From UHGV virus genome UHGV-1607642: a DNA stretch of 21,789 nucleotides; one strand, 5' to 3'. Each line of letters begins with the position of its first letter. Position 1 is the first letter of the stretch. The notes under the pieces are model-generated. The model saw only the letters and a list, made by a program, of their open reading frames with translations, had not been told where the DNA came from and searched no databases. Source of the stretch: a virus. A program made the translations under genes and the position numbers. Below are positions 3,123-15,264 of the stretch, one piece after another.

Positions 3123-3140
3123 TAAGTAAGTACTTATACA
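3123..3140. repeat. Degenerate copy of the TAAGTA-N6-TACTTA element (contains perfect 10-bp palindrome TAAGTACTTA, 3127-3136)
   Basis: TAAGTAAGTACTTATACA sits in the 64-bp divergent intergenic region and abuts ATG 3141. Confidence 0.5.
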
Positions 3141-3839
3141 ATGGATTGTATCAGAATTATGGGTGTGAAAATTACGATTCTGCAGGTGGAAGTCGCGAAC
3201 CTGCGTCCGAATCCCTGGAATACCAACTCCGTTGGGGCGCAAAACTTCGAAAAACTGAAAGGCTCTATCGAAAAATTGGGCTTTTTTAAGCCAATTCTGG
3301 CGCGGGAGTTGGACGGGGGCATTTTTGAGATCCTCGGTGGTGAACACCGCTGGCGTGCCGCGATGGAGCAGGGCATTTCAACGGTTCCCGTCATCTCCGT
3401 GGGCAAAATTAACGATCTGGTGGCCAAACAGATTTCCCTCGTCGACAACGAGCGCTACGGCGAAGACGATCAGGTCGCTTTGCAGCGCTTAATCGAAGAA
3501 ATCCAGTCTGAAATCGACTACCGGTTGTCCGATATCGCCCCGTATGACGACGAAATGGCGGCAACACTCGCCAAAGCGTCCGTTACCGATCTTGAAGCGC
3601 TGGAAGCGCTCTCCCGTGGCGATGACGAGCCGGTCGATGAGGACAAACGCGAGAAAACCGAGCGAGTCGGCGCTGAACACCAGACGATGCGCTTCAAGGT
3701 GACGTTTGATGCGTCAGATCGCGTCGCCGACACCATCAAAACCATCATCAAAGAGCAGGGAATCAATACCGGTAACGAAATGGAGAACGCCGGGGAAGCC
3801 CTGGTGTGGCTGGTCGACTACTACAAGGAGCGTATGTAA
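3141..3839 (+). CDS. ParB/Srx-like N-terminal domain protein 1 (232 aa)
   Basis: ParB-type motif FEILGGEHRWRAAMEQG followed by an acidic C-terminal half. No clear SD; start could also be ATG 3159. Confidence 0.7.
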   Translation: MDCIRIMGVKITILQVEVANLRPNPWNTNSVGAQNFEKLKGSIEKLGFFKPILARELDGGIFEILGGEHRWRAAMEQGISTVPVISVGKINDLVAKQISLVDNERYGEDDQVALQRLIEEIQSEIDYRLSDIAPYDDEMAATLAKASVTDLEALEALSRGDDEPVDEDKREKTERVGAEHQTMRFKVTFDASDRVADTIKTIIKEQGINTGNEMENAGEALVWLVDYYKERM

Positions 3840-4507
3840 TGACCAAAAACTTTGAAATCGTCTATCGAAACCCGGCAGAACTCATCCCGTATGAGATGAA
3901 CGCCAAAAAACATGACGAACAGCAGATCCGCGATCTGGCGGCCGCCATCAAAAAGCGCGGTTTTGACCAGCCGATCACGGTCGACAAGCACGACGTCATC
4001 ATTACTGGCCACGGTCGTCGCGAGGCGGCTCTTCTGGCTGGTCTGGAGCGTGTGCCGGTCATTGTTCGCGACGATCTGAGCGAAGAAGAAGTGAAGGCTA
4101 AGCGTCTGGAAGACAACCGCCTGGCCAGTATTGACTACGACGCCATCAAATTGCAGCAGGAACTGGAATCCCTGGTGCTGGGCGATGTCGAGGTCTTCGG
4201 TTTTGAAGAGCGCGAGCTGAACGTGCTTGTCGGCAGCATGACCGAAGAGATGGAAACCGGCTCTCTGGTGCTCGATCTGGGCGAAGAGACGGAGCGCCAG
4301 AAGGAAGAGCACACCGAGATCAGTCGCGAAGTGGCCTCTGAAGAAGTCCGCGTCATCGACGTATTGGGCTTTAAAACGCTCCCTGCTGGCTCTGCCATTG
4401 TGGTTGGGGATTTGCTTGCCCACATGGAAGAAATCACGGGAGAGAGCGGGGTAGACGCTTTCGTGGCGTATGCGGAGAAAGTTTCTTCTGGGGAGCTGGC
4501 CGCATGA
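3839..4507 (+). CDS. ParB/Srx-like N-terminal domain protein 2 (222 aa)
   Basis: ParB-type motif VIITGHGRREAALLAG with acidic C-terminal half. ATG overlaps the upstream TAA by 1 nt (ATGTAATGA); the track ORF begins further upstream at a non-ATG codon. Confidence 0.7.
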   Translation: MTKNFEIVYRNPAELIPYEMNAKKHDEQQIRDLAAAIKKRGFDQPITVDKHDVIITGHGRREAALLAGLERVPVIVRDDLSEEEVKAKRLEDNRLASIDYDAIKLQQELESLVLGDVEVFGFEERELNVLVGSMTEEMETGSLVLDLGEETERQKEEHTEISREVASEEVRVIDVLGFKTLPAGSAIVVGDLLAHMEEITGESGVDAFVAYAEKVSSGELAA

Positions 4508-5142
4508 GCAAATACACCATCAACGTATCGTTTCAGACCCGCGTGAACAAAACCACGCGCACGCTGGAGATTGCCGAATCGTTCGGTCTTGGCCTGGACG
4601 AAAAAGAGTGGACGCTTTACGACAATCTGGAGCTGGAAGTGAAGCAGGGCGATGTGGTGTACATCACCGGCCAATCCGGTTCCGGTAAATCCGTTGTGCT
4701 GCGCGAGCTGCAACGCCAGATGAAGGATGAAGGGCTTTCTGTAGCCTCCATCGATGACTTTGCCTTCGACAATGAGGTTAACGTCATTGACCAGCTGGGC
4801 AAAACCACCAGCGAAGCGCTGGGGCTGCTGTCTATGGCCGGATTGAATGACGCCTATCTCTTTGTGCGTAAGCCATCCGAGATGTCTGACGGCCAGAAAT
4901 ACCGTCTCAAGATCGCCAAGCTGATCGAGTCCGGCGCGAAAGTCTGGGCTGCCGACGAATTTGGCGCTGTTCTCGACCGTGTAACCGCCCAGGTTGTGGC
5001 GTCGAACCTCCAGCGTGCCGCCCGTAAGGTTGGTGCGACGGTAATGGTGGCGACGACCCACGAAGACCTGAAGAACGCGCTGCGCCCGGATATGCAGATC
5101 ACCAAGCACTACAAAGAACGCGTGAAGGTGGAATATGCCTGA
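4504..5142 (+). CDS. Minimal ABC-type ATPase (212 aa, nucleotide-binding domain only)
   Basis: Walker A GQSGSGKS, signature-like SDGQKYR, Walker B VWAADEF, D-loop GAVLD, H-loop ATTHED. Start overlaps the upstream stop (ATGA); SD GGGAG upstream. No transmembrane partner gene. Confidence 0.75.
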   Translation: MSKYTINVSFQTRVNKTTRTLEIAESFGLGLDEKEWTLYDNLELEVKQGDVVYITGQSGSGKSVVLRELQRQMKDEGLSVASIDDFAFDNEVNVIDQLGKTTSEALGLLSMAGLNDAYLFVRKPSEMSDGQKYRLKIAKLIESGAKVWAADEFGAVLDRVTAQVVASNLQRAARKVGATVMVATTHEDLKNALRPDMQITKHYKERVKVEYA

Positions 5143-5389
5143 TTTGAAGATCGTAGAGCTGAAGCCATCGAAAGAGGCTGACAACAACAACGTTGAAGTC
5201 ATCCGCCTGCTGGAAGAAGCACTCCAGTACGCCAGAGAAGGCAAAAGCCAGAGCCTGGCACTGCTGATGATCAACAACGACGGCAGTGTGCTGGATTGCT
5301 GGCATAACGGTGGGCGTCCATACGTCATGGTTGGGGCGATGGAATCGCTTCGCCTGGACTTCATCAATGCCAATATCGAGCGTAGGTGA
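5135..5389 (+). CDS. Small hypothetical protein (84 aa)
   Basis: ORF overlaps the ATPase stop by 8 nt; SD AAGGTGG upstream. No recognisable motif. Confidence 0.5.
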   Translation: MPDLKIVELKPSKEADNNNVEVIRLLEEALQYAREGKSQSLALLMINNDGSVLDCWHNGGRPYVMVGAMESLRLDFINANIERR

Positions 5390-5394
5390 TCGAC

Positions 5395-6285
5395 ATGACA
5401 GGCATCATCATCAAACGCTACCGCCCGGAAGAGTTCCCGCGTCATCTGGACTTTCTGGAGCGTATGACCGTTACCAAAGGCACGGTTGAAGACTGGCACG
5501 CGCTGAAGTCGCTGCACTACAAGACGGATGGTAAGCCGTTCGCGCCAACGTATTATCGCTGCGAACTGGACGACCGGCTGGTGGGCGTCGTGGTTATGGC
5601 TTACCCGAAACTGCTGCTGGCGCCTCGCCATCGCATGTTTCCTAAGCTGAAGCCAACCACCAATACCACCGTGGCCAACCAGTATTGGGGCCGGTACGTG
5701 AACAACAACTTTGCCGTGATCAGCCGTTCCGTTGTTGACACTCAGTACCGCGGTGTCGGCGTCTCCTATCGAATGATTAACCTGGTTAGCAGGATGCACG
5801 ACCGGCCAATCATCGAGATCCAGTCGTCGATGAGCAAATACAACCCGTTCGCCATGAAAGCAGGGTTCCAGTTCATCCGTCAGGAGCGTCCGAAGAGCTA
5901 TGAGAGTGCGTTGCGCGTCTTCCAGCGTCATTTCCGTTCCGACCCTGGCGACAACGAAGCGATCGTCAAAGAGCTGTTTGCCATGAGTGAGTCTCGCCGT
6001 CGTCGTGCGCTGCGTGATCTGGTCGCTGACTACCACAAGAACAGTTCCCTGGCCAAAGCCGGGCGTAATCGTGGCACGACGATTCAGGACATTGCCGACA
6101 GCCTGGTGGACGAGGCCAGCATCGTGAAGCTGCTCAAGGACATTCACAACCTGAGCTTCACGTCTCCGCTGTATGGCGTGTACCGAAACCCGGACTTTGG
6201 TCGTCAGCTGCCGGACACGCTGCCACTGCTGGCATTCGACAAACAGCCTTTGAATAAACCTCTTGAAATTGCATTACCGGCATAA
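5395..6285 (+). CDS. Hypothetical protein with a GNAT-like acetyltransferase motif (about 296 aa)
   Basis: Start at ATG 5395 with SD AGGTGA 6 nt upstream. Segment AVISRSVVDTQYRGVGVSYRMINL fits the GNAT motif A (R/Q-x-x-G-x-G/A), read by eye; the ~130-aa C-terminal extension is unassigned. Confidence 0.5.
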   Translation: MTGIIIKRYRPEEFPRHLDFLERMTVTKGTVEDWHALKSLHYKTDGKPFAPTYYRCELDDRLVGVVVMAYPKLLLAPRHRMFPKLKPTTNTTVANQYWGRYVNNNFAVISRSVVDTQYRGVGVSYRMINLVSRMHDRPIIEIQSSMSKYNPFAMKAGFQFIRQERPKSYESALRVFQRHFRSDPGDNEAIVKELFAMSESRRRRALRDLVADYHKNSSLAKAGRNRGTTIQDIADSLVDEASIVKLLKDIHNLSFTSPLYGVYRNPDFGRQLPDTLPLLAFDKQPLNKPLEIALPA

Positions 6286-6294
6286 GGATTTGCC

Positions 6295-6561
6295 ATGACG
6301 TTGACCGACAAACAAAAAGACATCATCAAAACCATCAATTTAGGCCATGAGCGTGGGCATCTGCTCGATCTGGACGAGCTGCTTGAAGTGCTGCCGTACA
6401 AAACGACCAAACAGAGTATGCAGTTCTCTATCCGCGCACTGGTGAAAAAGGGGCTGGTGGAGAAAGGAATGTGCCGCCAGCGCGGTGATTCCGGCTACCA
6501 CCGTCGCACGCTGGGACTGACCACGTTAGGTCGTGCCAGAGCCAAATTACTGGTGATGTAA
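6295..6561 (+). CDS. Small winged-helix-like DNA-binding protein (88 aa)
   Basis: ORF with SD AAGGA. Size and basic C-terminal half suggest an HTH/wH regulator; the fold assignment is an inference. Confidence 0.45.
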   Translation: MTLTDKQKDIIKTINLGHERGHLLDLDELLEVLPYKTTKQSMQFSIRALVKKGLVEKGMCRQRGDSGYHRRTLGLTTLGRARAKLLVM

Positions 6562-6586
6562 GTCGGTCTGGGAGCCAGTTTGAGAG

Positions 6587-6641
6587 CCTGCTTCCGTATA
6601 TATAAATACTAAGTGACTTATTAAATATATACGGAAGCAGG
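6587..6641. promoter_or_regulatory. Large perfect inverted repeat (17-bp arms, 21-nt spacer) with a nested TAAGTgACTTA palindrome
   Basis: CCTGCTTCCGTATATAT ... ATATATACGGAAGCAGG. The spacer contains TAAGTGACTTA (6610-6620). No flanking T-tract, so it is not a typical intrinsic terminator. Confidence 0.6.
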
Positions 6642-6756
6642 TTCTGAATACTCCCCAGCCCGGTTTTAAACACCCAGAAAACAAATTGGTTAGGCACTGA
6701 ATTAAACAAGTTGTTTAGGAGCGCAAGGATGCGCTCTGAGTGTTTTAGAGGGATCT

Positions 6757-7398
6757 ATGACTGTAGAAAAAGACGAGAGCAAAACTCGCCTGACACCAGC
6801 TGAGTGGGCAGAAGCCGAAGCGAAGTGGACTTCCGGCGAATACACACTCTCCAGGCTGGAGGAAGAGTACGGCATTCGTCGTGAAACGCTCTCCAGACAT
6901 TTCAAAAAGCGTGGATTAGAGAAAGGCGCGGACTCCGTTGGGAAGATGGTGCGCGAGTCGCTCAAATCCGACGCAGAGCTGCGTGCGAAGGCGCGTGCAG
7001 AGAAAATCGAAGAGCGCCGGACTCGTTACGACGATTGGGCGTTCGCACTCGGTCGTATGGTGATGCATGAGGTGGCCACAGCCAAGAAGGACGGCAGGCC
7101 ACTGGCAGCCATCGAAGATGACCTGAAGAGTCTCCAGCGTGCCAGCGGCACACTCGCTAAGTGCTTCGAAATATCGTCGAAAGCGCTCGGTATGGATCGC
7201 GTGGAGAACGAGGACGACGAAATCCCGAACCTGGTATTTGGCGAACTTACGCCTTCCCAGGTGGCGCAGCTGCGTAAGGAAGATGATGAGCCGGATCTGA
7301 TTGATGACGATCTGCTTGAGTCACTCGAAGAGGAAGCACTGAGCGAAGCTGAGGGCGATTCTGAAGCGTCTGGTGATGAAAGTGATGGGAGCGTCTGA
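6757..7398 (+). CDS. Terminase small subunit (213 aa)
   Basis: Sits immediately upstream of the large terminase. N-terminal HTH-like segment YTLSRLEEEYGIRRETLSRHF and strongly acidic C-terminus. SD AGAGGGA upstream. Confidence 0.7.
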   Translation: MTVEKDESKTRLTPAEWAEAEAKWTSGEYTLSRLEEEYGIRRETLSRHFKKRGLEKGADSVGKMVRESLKSDAELRAKARAEKIEERRTRYDDWAFALGRMVMHEVATAKKDGRPLAAIEDDLKSLQRASGTLAKCFEISSKALGMDRVENEDDEIPNLVFGELTPSQVAQLRKEDDEPDLIDDDLLESLEEEALSEAEGDSEASGDESDGSV

Positions 7399-7400
7399 CT

Positions 7401-8657
7401 ATGGCCATCCCGTCGTCTCTGAGTCTCGTACAGCTGCATTCTGGGCAGATGCAAGTCTTCCAGTCGCCACATCGTTTCAAAGTGGTGTGTGCGGGTCGAC
7501 GCTGGGGTAAATCCCGGTTGTCGATCTCCACCATCATCCGCGCGGCAGCCAAAGAGAAGAAGCAACGTGTCTGGTATGTCGCACCGACTTACCAGATGGC
7601 TCGCCAGATCTTGTGGGATGACCTGCAGGAAGTTCTGCCGCGCAAATGGGTTCGTAAGAAAAACGACACCACGATGACCATCGTGCTGAAGAACGGCTCT
7701 GAAATCGCGCTGAAAGGTGCGGATAAGCCCGATACGCTTCGTGGTGTGGCACTGCACTTTGTGGTGCTCGATGAATTTCAGGATATGAAGCCTGACACCT
7801 GGTACAAGGTACTGCGTCCGACACTGTCCTCCACCCGTGGCGGTGCGCTGATCATCGGTACGCCAAAAGGCTTCTCCGAGTTCCACAAGCTGTGGACTAT
7901 CGGTCAGAACAAAGATTTGCAACGCAAGGGGCAGTGGAAGAGCTGGCAGTTCGTTACGGCCGATTCTCCGTTCGTACCGAGCGCGGAAATCGAAGCAGCG
8001 AAGAACGATATGGACCCTAAATCGTTCGCACAGGAATACCTGGCCAGCTTCGAAAACATGTCCGGACGCGTTTACTACCCGTTCGACCGCAATGTGCATG
8101 TGAAGCCACTCCAGTTCAATCCGAAACTGCCGATCTGGGTTGGTCAGGACTTCAACATCGACCCTATGTCATCGGTCATCCTGCAACCGCAGCCAAATGG
8201 TGAACTGTGGGCTGTGGACGAATTGGTGTTGTTCTCTTCTAACACGGCTGAAGTGTGTGACGAGCTGGAGCGTCGATACTGGCGCTGGAAATCTCAGGTC
8301 ACTATCTTTCCTGACCCGGCAGGTGCGTATCGCCAGCACGCACGCGGCGAATCTGACGTCGACATCTTCAAAGAGAAAGGTTTCCTTCGAGTCGACTATC
8401 CGAAGAAACACCCACCGATCGCAGACCGTGTGAACGCCGTGAACCGCATGTTAATGAGCGCCTCGGGCGAAACACGGTTGTACGTCGATCCGAAGTGCAA
8501 ACACTTAATCGACTCACTGGGGAAGGTGATCTACAAGCCAGGCTCACGCGATATGGATAAGACAGGCGGCGTCGAGCACAGTGCGGATGCGTTGGGGTAT
8601 CCGGTTCATCGTAGGTATCCAGTGAAAAATCGTGTTATTCTTGGTGGATCCAGATAA
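7401..8657 (+). CDS. Terminase large subunit (418 aa)
   Basis: Walker A VVCAGRRWGKS and Walker B HFVVLDEF in the N-terminal ATPase; C-terminal nuclease-like acidic motifs (WVGQDFN, IFPDPAG, HSADALG). SD GGGAG upstream. Confidence 0.9.
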   Translation: MAIPSSLSLVQLHSGQMQVFQSPHRFKVVCAGRRWGKSRLSISTIIRAAAKEKKQRVWYVAPTYQMARQILWDDLQEVLPRKWVRKKNDTTMTIVLKNGSEIALKGADKPDTLRGVALHFVVLDEFQDMKPDTWYKVLRPTLSSTRGGALIIGTPKGFSEFHKLWTIGQNKDLQRKGQWKSWQFVTADSPFVPSAEIEAAKNDMDPKSFAQEYLASFENMSGRVYYPFDRNVHVKPLQFNPKLPIWVGQDFNIDPMSSVILQPQPNGELWAVDELVLFSSNTAEVCDELERRYWRWKSQVTIFPDPAGAYRQHARGESDVDIFKEKGFLRVDYPKKHPPIADRVNAVNRMLMSASGETRLYVDPKCKHLIDSLGKVIYKPGSRDMDKTGGVEHSADALGYPVHRRYPVKNRVILGGSR

Positions 8658-8672
8658 GTAAGTACTTACTTA
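8655..8672. repeat. Perfect 18-bp palindrome TAAGTAAGTACTTACTTA (TAAGTA-N6-TACTTA element)
   Basis: Self-complementary over all 18 nt; it contains the TerL stop codon and lies just upstream of the portal start. Confidence 0.8.
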
Positions 8673-8674
8673 AC

Positions 8675-10264
8675 ATGGAAGAAAGGCAAATGGAATTGAC
8701 TGATAAGCAAATCAAAGACCTTGTGGCACGACGCCACCCTGAATATGAGAAGAAAAAAGAACATTGGGACTTCCTCGCCAGCACCTACGCTGGCGGGCGT
8801 GCCTGGTTCAACGACAATATCTTCCGTTACTTCAAAGAGGGCGATCAGGAGTTCAAAGAGCGCCTGGAACGCGCTTATCGCTTCAACCATACGCGCGAAG
8901 TGGTAAACCTCATCAACAAATACCTCTTCAAAGAGGTCATTCACCGCAACACTGATGAAGCACCGGAGCAGATCCGCAATTTCTGGAAGCGAGCCACGCG
9001 CCAGAACGCCTCCATCGATGCGTTTATGGCGGCTATCGATCTGCAATCATCCATTTATGGCCGTATTTGGGTTGTCGTGGATAGCACGATGAACGTCGAT
9101 GTTGAGTCTGTTGCAGACGAGAAGAAAAATGATGCGCGTGCCTACGCTTACTGGATTTCGCCACAGCAGCTGCTTGATGTTGCCTGGGATGAAGATGGCA
9201 ATATGTTGTGGGCGTTGATTGTTGAAATCGCGCGCGACGACGAAGATCCGTTCACATCAACCGGGCAGGAATACCAGCGTTACCGTCTGTGGACGCAAAA
9301 CGAGTGGTATCTGTTCCGTGAAGAAGTGAAGAAAGGTTCAGGGAATAGTGGTCGTCGTCAGGCCAAAGTCGTTCTGGAGGATAGTGGCAATCATAATCTT
9401 GGGGTGGTGCCGGTGTTTCCGGTGGATTGCATTGGTGAAAGCGATTCTCCGTATTTTAGCCCGTCGTTAATTGACGATATCGCCTATCTTGACCGCGCCG
9501 TGGCCAACTACCTGTCGAACCTTGACGCGATTATTCAGGATCAGACATTCAGCCAGTTAGCGATTCCGGTTCAGTCCTTGCTGCCGGGCGATGAAAACCA
9601 CACCAAAGTGCTCGAAATGGGGACAAAACGTGTCTTCACCTTCGATTCTGAGAGCGGTAATCAGCCATTCTATCTGTCTCCAGACCCGAAACAGGCTCAG
9701 ATGATCATCACCACGATTAAGACGGTGATTAATGAGATCTACCATTCCGTTGGTGTGGCTGGTGAGCGAACCAAGCAGGATAACGCGCAGGGTATCGACA
9801 ACTCTTCGGGGGCAGCGAAGATGTACGACTTCCAACGTATTAACAGTCTGTTGGTGACAAAAGCAGAGCGCCTCGAAAGGGCAGAACGCCAAATGATGGA
9901 GTTGGCTGCGAAATGGATGGGCATCGAATTGGATGAAGACCACTCTCTGATCGCTTACCCGGAGAGTTTCGATATTCGTGGTCTGACTGACGAATTTGCC
10001 GTCGCTGAGAAATTGTCGCTGTTACAGGCGCCTGATTCTGTACGTCGTCATCAGATGGAAATGCTCATAGAAAAGATCTTCCCGAATATTTCCGAAGCGA
10101 TGCAAAAGGAATTTAAAAAAGATCTCTTGAAATTTCCTCTAAAAAATGCTCCTGGCGCCCTTGAAAATAAGTCAGTACTTACTTATGATCGAGATACAGT
10201 CCAAGAAAGCGGACAAGATCAACCCCGAGGGAATGGGGACTCATCTACTCAAGAGACCGAGTGA
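8675..10264 (+). CDS. Portal protein (about 525-529 aa)
   Basis: Large ORF directly after TerL and before the scaffold and capsid genes; assigned by position and size. Start ambiguous: ATG 8675 has no SD, ATG 8690 has AAAGG 3 nt upstream. Confidence 0.7.
   Translation: MEERQMELTDKQIKDLVARRHPEYEKKKEHWDFLASTYAGGRAWFNDNIFRYFKEGDQEFKERLERAYRFNHTREVVNLINKYLFKEVIHRNTDEAPEQIRNFWKRATRQNASIDAFMAAIDLQSSIYGRIWVVVDSTMNVDVESVADEKKNDARAYAYWISPQQLLDVAWDEDGNMLWALIVEIARDDEDPFTSTGQEYQRYRLWTQNEWYLFREEVKKGSGNSGRRQAKVVLEDSGNHNLGVVPVFPVDCIGESDSPYFSPSLIDDIAYLDRAVANYLSNLDAIIQDQTFSQLAIPVQSLLPGDENHTKVLEMGTKRVFTFDSESGNQPFYLSPDPKQAQMIITTIKTVINEIYHSVGVAGERTKQDNAQGIDNSSGAAKMYDFQRINSLLVTKAERLERAERQMMELAAKWMGIELDEDHSLIAYPESFDIRGLTDEFAVAEKLSLLQAPDSVRRHQMEMLIEKIFPNISEAMQKEFKKDLLKFPLKNAPGALENKSVLTYDRDTVQESGQDQPRGNGDSSTQETE
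10168..10185. repeat. TAAGTC-AGTACT-TACTTA element copy (1 mismatch) inside the 3' end of the portal ORF
   Basis: TAAGTCAGTACTTACTTA lies 79 nt upstream of the portal stop codon. Confidence 0.6.
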
Positions 10265-12098: not shown

Positions 12099-12116
12099 TA
12101 AGTAGTTATCTACTTA
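12099..12116. repeat. TAAGTA-GTTATC-TACTTA element copy
   Basis: Arms TAAGTA and TACTTA with 6-nt spacer, between the capsid stop and the terminator. Confidence 0.7.
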
Positions 12117-15194: not shown

Positions 15195-15212
15195 ATAAGT
15201 AAATATATACTT
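15195..15212. repeat. TAAGTA-AATATA-TACTTA element copy
   Basis: Arms TAAGTA/TACTTA with 6-nt AT spacer in the intergenic region upstream of the major tail gene. Confidence 0.7.
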
Positions 15213-15264
15213 ACTATTGGCGCCATGAAGGTGCTGATTTAACGGAAAAAGGAGTTTTCCAACA

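Follow-up and report, generated by a model that had tools for sequence, protein, structure and literature searches.

A palindrome ahead of the small terminase gene of an SSU5-like phage-plasmid is one of three copies of a hairpin element and probably an RNA-level boundary element rather than a unique packaging site

The window, by which we mean the whole stretch of 21,789 nt of viral DNA analysed here (UHGV-1607642), is part of an SSU5-like phage-plasmid. This follows from the identity of segment 6295-7400 to plasmids and to SSU5: several E. coli plasmids of 106-115 kb matched it at 100% identity and Salmonella phage SSU5 at 99.5%, and the places in E. coli that matched it were all on plasmids (244/244). 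On the + strand, genes for two ParB_N-domain proteins, an ABC-type ATPase, an 84-aa protein, a second ATPase-like protein (phrog_886) and an 88-aa protein are followed, after a gap of 195 bp, by those for a 213-aa protein, TerL and the portal. The palindrome lies in this gap and will be called copy 1. The features of the gap and of the adjoining genes are the following.

6295..6561, + strand: 88-aa gene (phrog_900), last of the ParB-ParB-ABC-x-ABC block, with its stop codon at 6559-6561
6565..6574, + strand: outer-left box GGTCTGGGAG, 4 nt past the 88-aa stop codon, conserved in relatives
6587..6603, + strand: left arm CCTGCTTCCGTATATAT, perfect complement of 6625-6641; relatives differ at positions 6 and 9
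6604..6624, + strand: AT-rich centre AAATAC-TAAGTGACTTA-TTAA, near-invariant in relatives and common to both paralogous copies
6625..6641, + strand: right arm ATATATACGGAAGCAGG, which varies least within the intergenic region in 33-41 distinct relatives
6642..6650, + strand: 3' flank of the hairpin, TTCTGAATA, without a U-tract
6651..6660, + strand: outer-right box CTCCCCAGCC, imperfect complement of the outer-left box
6679-6693 and 6704-6718, + strand: box M sites AAACAAATTGGTTAG and AAACAAGTTGTTTAG, each partly palindromic and conserved in relatives
6718..6747, + strand: terminator-like hairpin GGAGCGCAAGGATGCGCTCT then GAGTGTTTTA, 1 nt before the TerS ribosome-binding site
6748-6753, + strand: TerS ribosome-binding site GAGGGA
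6757..7398, + strand: small terminase candidate (phrog_867, annotated as 'DNA binding domain'; TerS in the Cyrano record)
7401..8657, + strand: large terminase TerL (Pfam Terminase_6N and Terminase_3)

The closest solved structures to TerL were the P74-26 TerL ATPase domain and T4 gp17, and a weak match to TIGR01547 (PBSX) was also found. Lytic phages of Pseudomonas (nickie), Rhizobium (RHEph10) and Stenotrophomonas have this gene order as well, with TerL ~57% identical. In these ~110 kb phages (L085, L086, L087) the block at 3141-8657 of the window is syntenic and comprises a ParB-like gene, a second ParB-like gene (or a methyltransferase), an ABC ATPase, a small protein, an ATPase-like protein, a small DNA-binding protein, TerS, TerL and the portal. 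Since the block is syntenic in lytic phages, the ParB/ABC genes probably serve phage DNA handling rather than plasmid partition. Two further records are of note. In a metagenome-assembled genome labelled 'Bacillota bacterium' (L006, JAEWTL010000044.1), TerS was 99% identical to that of this enterobacterial phage-plasmid, and the Bacillota binning is probably a mis-binning. Yersinia pestis NCTC5923 (L007) had a 108-kb contig with the locus at 97% identity.

An earlier note, written from the letters of the window, had placed the palindrome just after a winged-helix gene and about 115 bp upstream of the small terminase. The location was correct: the left arm starts 26 nt past the stop of the 88-aa gene and the right arm ends 116 nt before the TerS ATG (6757). 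The winged-helix label did not stand in the same way, as its sole basis is a sub-threshold match of the 88-aa protein to LexA_DNA_bind (E = 0.14); the protein is possibly of this type. Complementarity of the 17-bp arms (6587-6603 and 6625-6641) was perfect, and they are indeed beyond chance: they form the longest spaced perfect inverted repeat of the window, and 300 dinucleotide shuffles gave a maximum of 13 bp. Fold z-scores for the palindrome were −9.4 as RNA and −8.0 as DNA. The description as a 55-bp perfect palindrome had to be abandoned, since within the 21-nt interior pairing is limited to TAAGT/ACTTA. This core (6610-6620, centred on 6615) is moreover 1 bp off the axis of the arms (6614) because the spacers on its two sides are unequal, AAATAC (6 nt) on the left and TTAA (4 nt) on the right. 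The symmetry extends outward, with 92% complementarity over 24 nt (6580-6603 / 6625-6648) and then the outer boxes; the outer-right box of relatives, CCCAGACC, is the exact complement of GGTCTGGG. The full element of copy 1 thus covers ~6563-6663, about 100 bp.

In the predicted RNA fold, the 21-nt interior of copy 1 forms an internal loop and a 4-bp mini-stem, and the fold lacked the short loop of 3-8 nt typical of an intrinsic terminator. The predicted duplex, with more than 20 bp and an internal loop, has the geometry of an RNase III substrate. Of the attributes of intrinsic terminators, copy 1 has a stable GC-containing hairpin at a gene end and lacks the U run: its 3' flank is TTCTGAAT, which bears out the absence of a T-tract reported earlier, and it was not called by a consensus terminator scan. 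A consensus scan for sigma-70-like promoters returned none in 6200-6900. The only candidate seen by manual inspection was TTGAGA-N15-TATAAA, and its −35-like hexamer is not conserved in relatives. Against Rfam 15, no family's gathering score was reached; the hits, which we regard as spurious, were generic long-hairpin (miRNA precursor) matches of only 17-27 bits, far below the gathering thresholds.

The earlier note had named absence from syntenic relatives as a refutation. The palindrome was present at the site in all 41 distinct upstream sequences, drawn from viral and genome contigs with TerS 87-100% identical. Including its unpaired centre, it is the best conserved stretch of the gap, with free variation immediately to its right. 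Conservation of pairing was tested over 24 arm pairs, of which 13 were invariant. At one pair (arm position 9) the series C-G, T·G, T-A was found, and at three pairs, in the outer extension, both sides had changed. Several arm changes break pairing in some lineages (A·A, G·A, C·A), and the covariation score was only modestly above that of shuffled controls. The TA run beside each arm gains or loses TA units, so that its length varies by 2-4 bp among relatives. The tails of copy 1 in relatives (TTCTGAAT, CTTAGTAAG, CTCTCAAAC) were T-poor in 41/41.

Copy 1 is not alone. The SSU5 genome holds three copies with shared arms and a closely similar centre, located as follows.

Copy 1, at the junction of the SSU5 record: the element upstream of TerS
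Copy 2, SSU5 33458-33513: between SSU5_037 and SSU5_038, with the helicase, primase and polymerase genes downstream
Copy 3, SSU5 78304-78360: after the SSU5_088 methyltransferase; the next block starts with SSU5_089

All of 12 SSU5-like phage records gave 3-6 BLAST places, and the E. coli genomes with a match (n = 260) gave a median of 6, which corresponds to about three copies, each counted once per strand. Plasmids held 1335/1339 of the places and E. coli chromosomes 4/1339. All three sites were occupied in the relatives examined, among which neither empty sites nor extra insertions were seen. A REP-, ERIC- or MITE-type repeat of the host was rejected on these grounds, 1335/1339 places being on SSU5-like plasmids with all three sites occupied. 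An arm-like match at SSU5 43712 lies in coding sequence without a partner arm and was not counted as a copy. With the diverged arms of one distant relative (L233), a gapped-pattern search of viral contigs recovered the known copy only, and a 14-mer was non-specific.

The three copies are built and placed alike. In each, the outer-left box begins 1-6 nt past the upstream stop codon, the left arm starts ~22 nt past the start of that box, and the asymmetric centre points the same way along the + strand. The next start codon follows the right arm at a distance of 116 nt in copy 1, ~117 nt in copy 2 and 119 nt in copy 3 (window 6641-6757; SSU5 33513-33631 and 78360-78479); at copy 1 a deletion of 25 nt was seen in one clade. 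The outer-left box reads AGTCTGGGAG in copy 3 and TCTGG(G) in copy 2 in most left-flank contexts within the displayed part of the alignment, and the outer boxes of copy 3 pair in the predicted fold. Past the outer-right box, copies 1 and 3 share ~30 nt (CCCAG.CCG.TTTTA.ACACC.CCAGAA). From the element rightwards copy 2 is conserved, including a promoter-like TTCCAA-N17-TATGAT. To its left lies a hyperplastic region (33380-33460 in L088; loci L090-L169). Records L135 and L152 start, at their position 1, inside copy 2, and NC_018843 starts at position 1 inside copy 1.

The copies do differ at their 3' ends. The tail of copy 2 is TCTTTTTC in SSU5 and T-rich, TCTTTT(T/A), across 60 distinct relatives, and that of copy 3 is CTTTTTAA in SSU5 and T-rich, CTTTTT or CTGTTTT, across 44. 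Predicted RNA hairpins were stable for all three, at −35.3 (z = −10.7), −24.6 and −22.8 kcal/mol for copies 1, 2 and 3, with z-scores from −7 to −11. Mismatches in the arm haplotypes, read on the + strand, comprised 23 G·T, as against 9 A·C and 8 others, although these haplotypes are not phylogenetically independent. In L178 the arm pair CCTGCGTCTG/CAGACGCAGG was fully compensated, and in the distant relatives L233 and L235 the arms differ yet stay complementary. The arms exist as two alleles, A (CCTGCTTCCG/CGGAAGCAGG) and B (CCTGCGTCTG/CAGACGCAGG), and all four combinations of left and right arm occur.

Between copy 1 and TerS lie the two box M sites, one of which is lost from one clade through a deletion of 25 bp. 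Pseudomonas phage nickie also has their ACAAGTTGTTAAG in its palindrome upstream of TerS, and the core ACAAGTTGTT-AG is common to the window and to that palindrome (L085 2513-2524 and 2541-2552). Judged from the sequence, box M is a candidate binding site for TerS or for the 88-aa protein. The terminator-like hairpin at 6718-6747 follows, whose stem shows a compensatory change in L028/L029 (GAGCACA...TGTGCTC). As there is no room for a promoter past this hairpin, expression of TerS must pass through it, which would imply that the late/packaging genes are reached via read-through or antitermination.

The layout in nickie is comparable: an imperfect palindrome without a T-tract, with GC-rich arms of similar sequence (GCCTTGCTTTCC / GGGACAAGCAG), then a clear terminator (L085 2698-2727) ~20 nt before the TerS ATG. 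At the corresponding site RHEph10 has a palindrome with 34-nt arms and an AT-rich centre. In these two lytic phages the palindrome is single-copy, lacks a T-tract and sits at the junction of the 88-aa gene and TerS.

The nested core had also been taken for an instance of a recurring junction motif. The motif is real, as TAAGT-N0-8-ACTTA matched 18 times in SSU5, where 0.26 matches were expected, and was found at five other places in the window (3123-3136, 8655-8672, 10168-10185, 12099-12116 and 15196-15213). The exact form with a 1-nt spacer, TAAGTNACTTA, was discarded as the recurring motif since it is unique in the window, and the motif was therefore relaxed to variable spacing. In SSU5 (L088/L089), motif sites lie at 3545, 9068, 15590, 21938, 38179, 41774, 45125, 55700, 67780, 72362 and 78714. 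In our own reading the full motif is a palindrome of ~20 bp with the consensus ATAAGTAAGT/ACTTACTTAT, usually starting 0-45 nt past a stop codon; the site at 8655 contains the TerL stop codon, and the repetition of TAAG puts stop codons into successive frames of either strand. Between the site at 12099 and the next gene lies a normal terminator, which makes a promoter role there unlikely. The core of the large palindrome, by contrast, shares only ~7 of 10 positions per half with the consensus (hand alignment) and resembles the motif in TAAGT/ACTTA and AT-richness alone. A link between them is plausible but weak.

Taken together, the element is probably an RNA-level boundary element rather than a unique DNA-packaging site. 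Our leading reading, held tentatively and at somewhat less than an even chance, is that the palindrome is copy 1 of a three-copy hairpin cassette of ~100 bp which bounds same-strand gene blocks and acts mainly at the RNA level. Action on RNA is favoured by the strand-specific T-tracts together with the excess of G·T over A·C. Once past the last stop codon of the ParB-ParB-ABC-x-ABC-88aa block, transcription would run at once into the element, and the + strand RNA would form a hairpin of 21-24 bp (~−35 kcal/mol). At copies 2 (past SSU5_037) and 3 (past the SSU5_088 methyltransferase), the hairpin and the conserved U-tract would lead to termination. Copy 1 is proposed to be a leaky barrier because it is without a U-tract, and might cause pausing, weak termination, 3'-end protection or RNase III-type processing. 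Transcripts that pass it would then encounter the canonical terminator hairpin at 6718-6747, a second barrier just ahead of the TerS ribosome-binding site, so that entry into the packaging/late genes would need read-through, which may be a point of control. Being a conserved repeat, the cassette would serve, in addition, as a crossover point between phage genomes, and it breaks assemblies.

Several known systems resemble the element in part. With intrinsic terminators it shares a stable hairpin with a GC-rich base right past a stop codon and, at copies 2 and 3, a T-tract that follows at once. It differs by a longer stem (17-24 bp) with a structured AT-rich top of 21 nt, by a sequence common to the copies, by outer inverted boxes beyond the T-tract and by the missing T-tract of copy 1. 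The PeSL of T4-type phages are composite promoter-terminator cassettes at mosaic junctions that are associated with modular exchange (PMC2839356, PMC4122927). Like them, the element is a conserved, repeated, terminator-like intergenic stem-loop at block edges that is tied to mosaic junctions; unlike them, it occurs in three copies only and in a siphovirus phage-plasmid lineage, no sigma-70 promoter consensus was found in its loop, and copy 1 lies between two conserved genes instead of in a hyperplastic region.

Between the genes of phage T7, several long intergenic hairpins with an internal loop are processed by RNase III in long same-strand transcripts. The geometry of the predicted fold is alike here, and the sequences are unrelated. 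We found no account of the hairpin element in the literature searched, with some subscription papers out of reach, and no description there of how the ~100 kb of same-strand genes are divided into transcription units.

Some observations weaken our preferred reading. Copy 1 is without the U-tract that defines a terminator, several arm changes break pairing, and simple termination would have no use for the conserved outer boxes that lie beyond the T-tract. Arm and loop sequences are conserved beyond pairing, which a plain terminator does not need and which implies a sequence-specific factor or gene conversion. The single palindrome without a T-tract in the lytic phages nickie and RHEph10 points to a function that is tied to this position and predates the extra copies. 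The sequence conservation, the outer boxes and the single-copy palindrome in lytic relatives are thus unexplained by a boundary hairpin acting on RNA, and they are why the other explanations are retained. The earlier note had proposed an operator, a terminase site or a cruciform, in each case as a single site linked to TerS. Non-randomness, conservation, absence of a T-tract and a likeness to the junction motif were all upheld; with three copies, uniqueness was not.

Of the explanations at the DNA level, an operator is the first to consider, and we regard it as unlikely. Here a phage protein would bind the duplex at three sites and control the three blocks downstream, namely late/packaging, replication and the block from SSU5_089; the putative winged-helix 88-aa protein, either ParB-like protein or a prophage repressor would be candidate binders. 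Such a protein would account for the sequence of arms and unpaired centre being conserved, between copies and between relatives, beyond the needs of pairing, and the position of each copy 116-119 nt upstream of the first gene of its block would suit an operator as well. The resemblance of the centre to the 20-bp palindromic junction motif at gene ends, the two-fold symmetry of the outer boxes and the GC-rich nickie arms of similar sequence point in the same direction. However, the half-sites would be ~38 bp apart and are not individually symmetric, and the TA run between arm and centre, with its variation of 2-4 bp among relatives, is poorly suited to a rigid binding site. Neither in nor beside copy 1 was a sigma-70-type promoter found, and the strand-specific T-tracts and the bias of G·T over A·C again point to RNA.

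A packaging site appears rather improbable to us, and a terminase recognition site is not supported by the data. Copy 1 would in that case be the cos/pac site cleaved and recognized by terminase, its symmetry being cosN-like and the box M sites being bound by TerS. The likeness to a lambda-type cos, with cosN and terminase-binding sites, is that a two-fold symmetric site lies upstream of the small terminase gene with short repeated sites in between; the differences are that the element is not unique in the genome and that TerL did not match the cos-type families. We keep this explanation mainly because distant lytic relatives conserve the position upstream of TerS: RHEph10 and nickie have palindromes of similar build, without a T-tract, at the same junction of 88-aa gene and TerS. 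Copy 1 itself is rotationally symmetric and just upstream of TerS-TerL, with the two conserved box M sites between it and TerS. A packaging site should nevertheless be unique, and the arms occur three times per genome.

Record ends were also considered. The linear, virion-derived SSU5 GenBank record (NC_018843) starts at window position 6624 and ends at 6623, inside the element, yet the unrelated draft contigs L135 and L152, from other assemblies, begin inside copy 2. Breaks at this repeat are therefore common, so the start of the SSU5 record needs no physical end and is weak evidence for cos. The Cyrano record, which starts one base later than SSU5, was rejected as independent support for cos, as it is a re-annotated plasmid oriented on SSU5 without mapping of ends; its virome coverage was at contamination/background level. 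As to the enzyme, TerL matched T4-type and PBSX-type families and not the lambda, P2 or HK97 cos families. The literature on Nickievirus relatives conflicts: a tree groups one Nickievirus TerL with 3'-cos phages (PMC8537276), in favor of a packaging site, whereas for the relative Nican01 a long DTR was called by PhageTerm (PMC11256456), which argues against it. No report on the genome ends of SSU5 was found in the literature searched.

The element could also persist chiefly as a conserved repeat for homologous, or possibly site-specific, exchange of blocks between phage-plasmids, in the manner of the PeSL cassettes or as a MITE-like insertion, which we find similarly improbable as a main function. 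The left flank of copy 2 speaks for exchange: its 60 nt fell into 19 unrelated clusters among 60 distinct sequences and the right side into one, though only the variability on the left is informative since the right side served as search anchor. The element is multi-copy with terminal inverted boxes, and its arm alleles are mixed, with A/A in the window, B-left/A-right at copy 1 in one clade, A-left/B-right in copy 3 of SSU5 and B/B in L178, as crossovers within the AT-rich centre would produce. A mobile cassette is less in line with three positions that are fixed in the relatives examined, with no empty site or extra insertion, with just 4/1339 BLAST places on E. coli chromosomes and with the conserved genes that flank copy 1 on both sides. 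Exchange at the element is in any case compatible with a boundary hairpin.

Least probable among the explanations that we retain, and in our view very unlikely, is an ancestral DNA site, a TerS-upstream palindrome recognized by its conserved neighbours, namely two ParB-like CTPase-fold proteins, two ABC-type ATPases, the small DNA-binding protein and TerS, to which the SSU5-like phage-plasmids would have added two loading sites. It is based on the combination of GC-rich arms, an AT-rich centre and no T-tract between the small 88-aa-type gene and TerS in SSU5-like, nickie-like and RHEph10-like phages. If true, the copies would make up a multi-site system for organising the genome or initiating packaging, instead of a set of terminators. 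A cruciform, finally, is disfavoured by the non-complementary centre of 21 nt.

In conclusion, the palindrome upstream of TerS belongs to a conserved three-copy element, and we favor, tentatively, a boundary hairpin at the RNA level. In Enterobacteriaceae, SSU5-like phage-plasmids are frequent vehicles of resistance and toxin genes, and one was present in 241-261 of 5426 complete E. coli genomes. Assemblies break at the element, and record starts there are best treated as breaks unless the ends have been mapped. The element marks places where gene blocks are exchanged between phage-plasmids, and a three-copy boundary element would provide landmarks for the operon structure of these genomes and for the control of entry into their late (packaging) genes.
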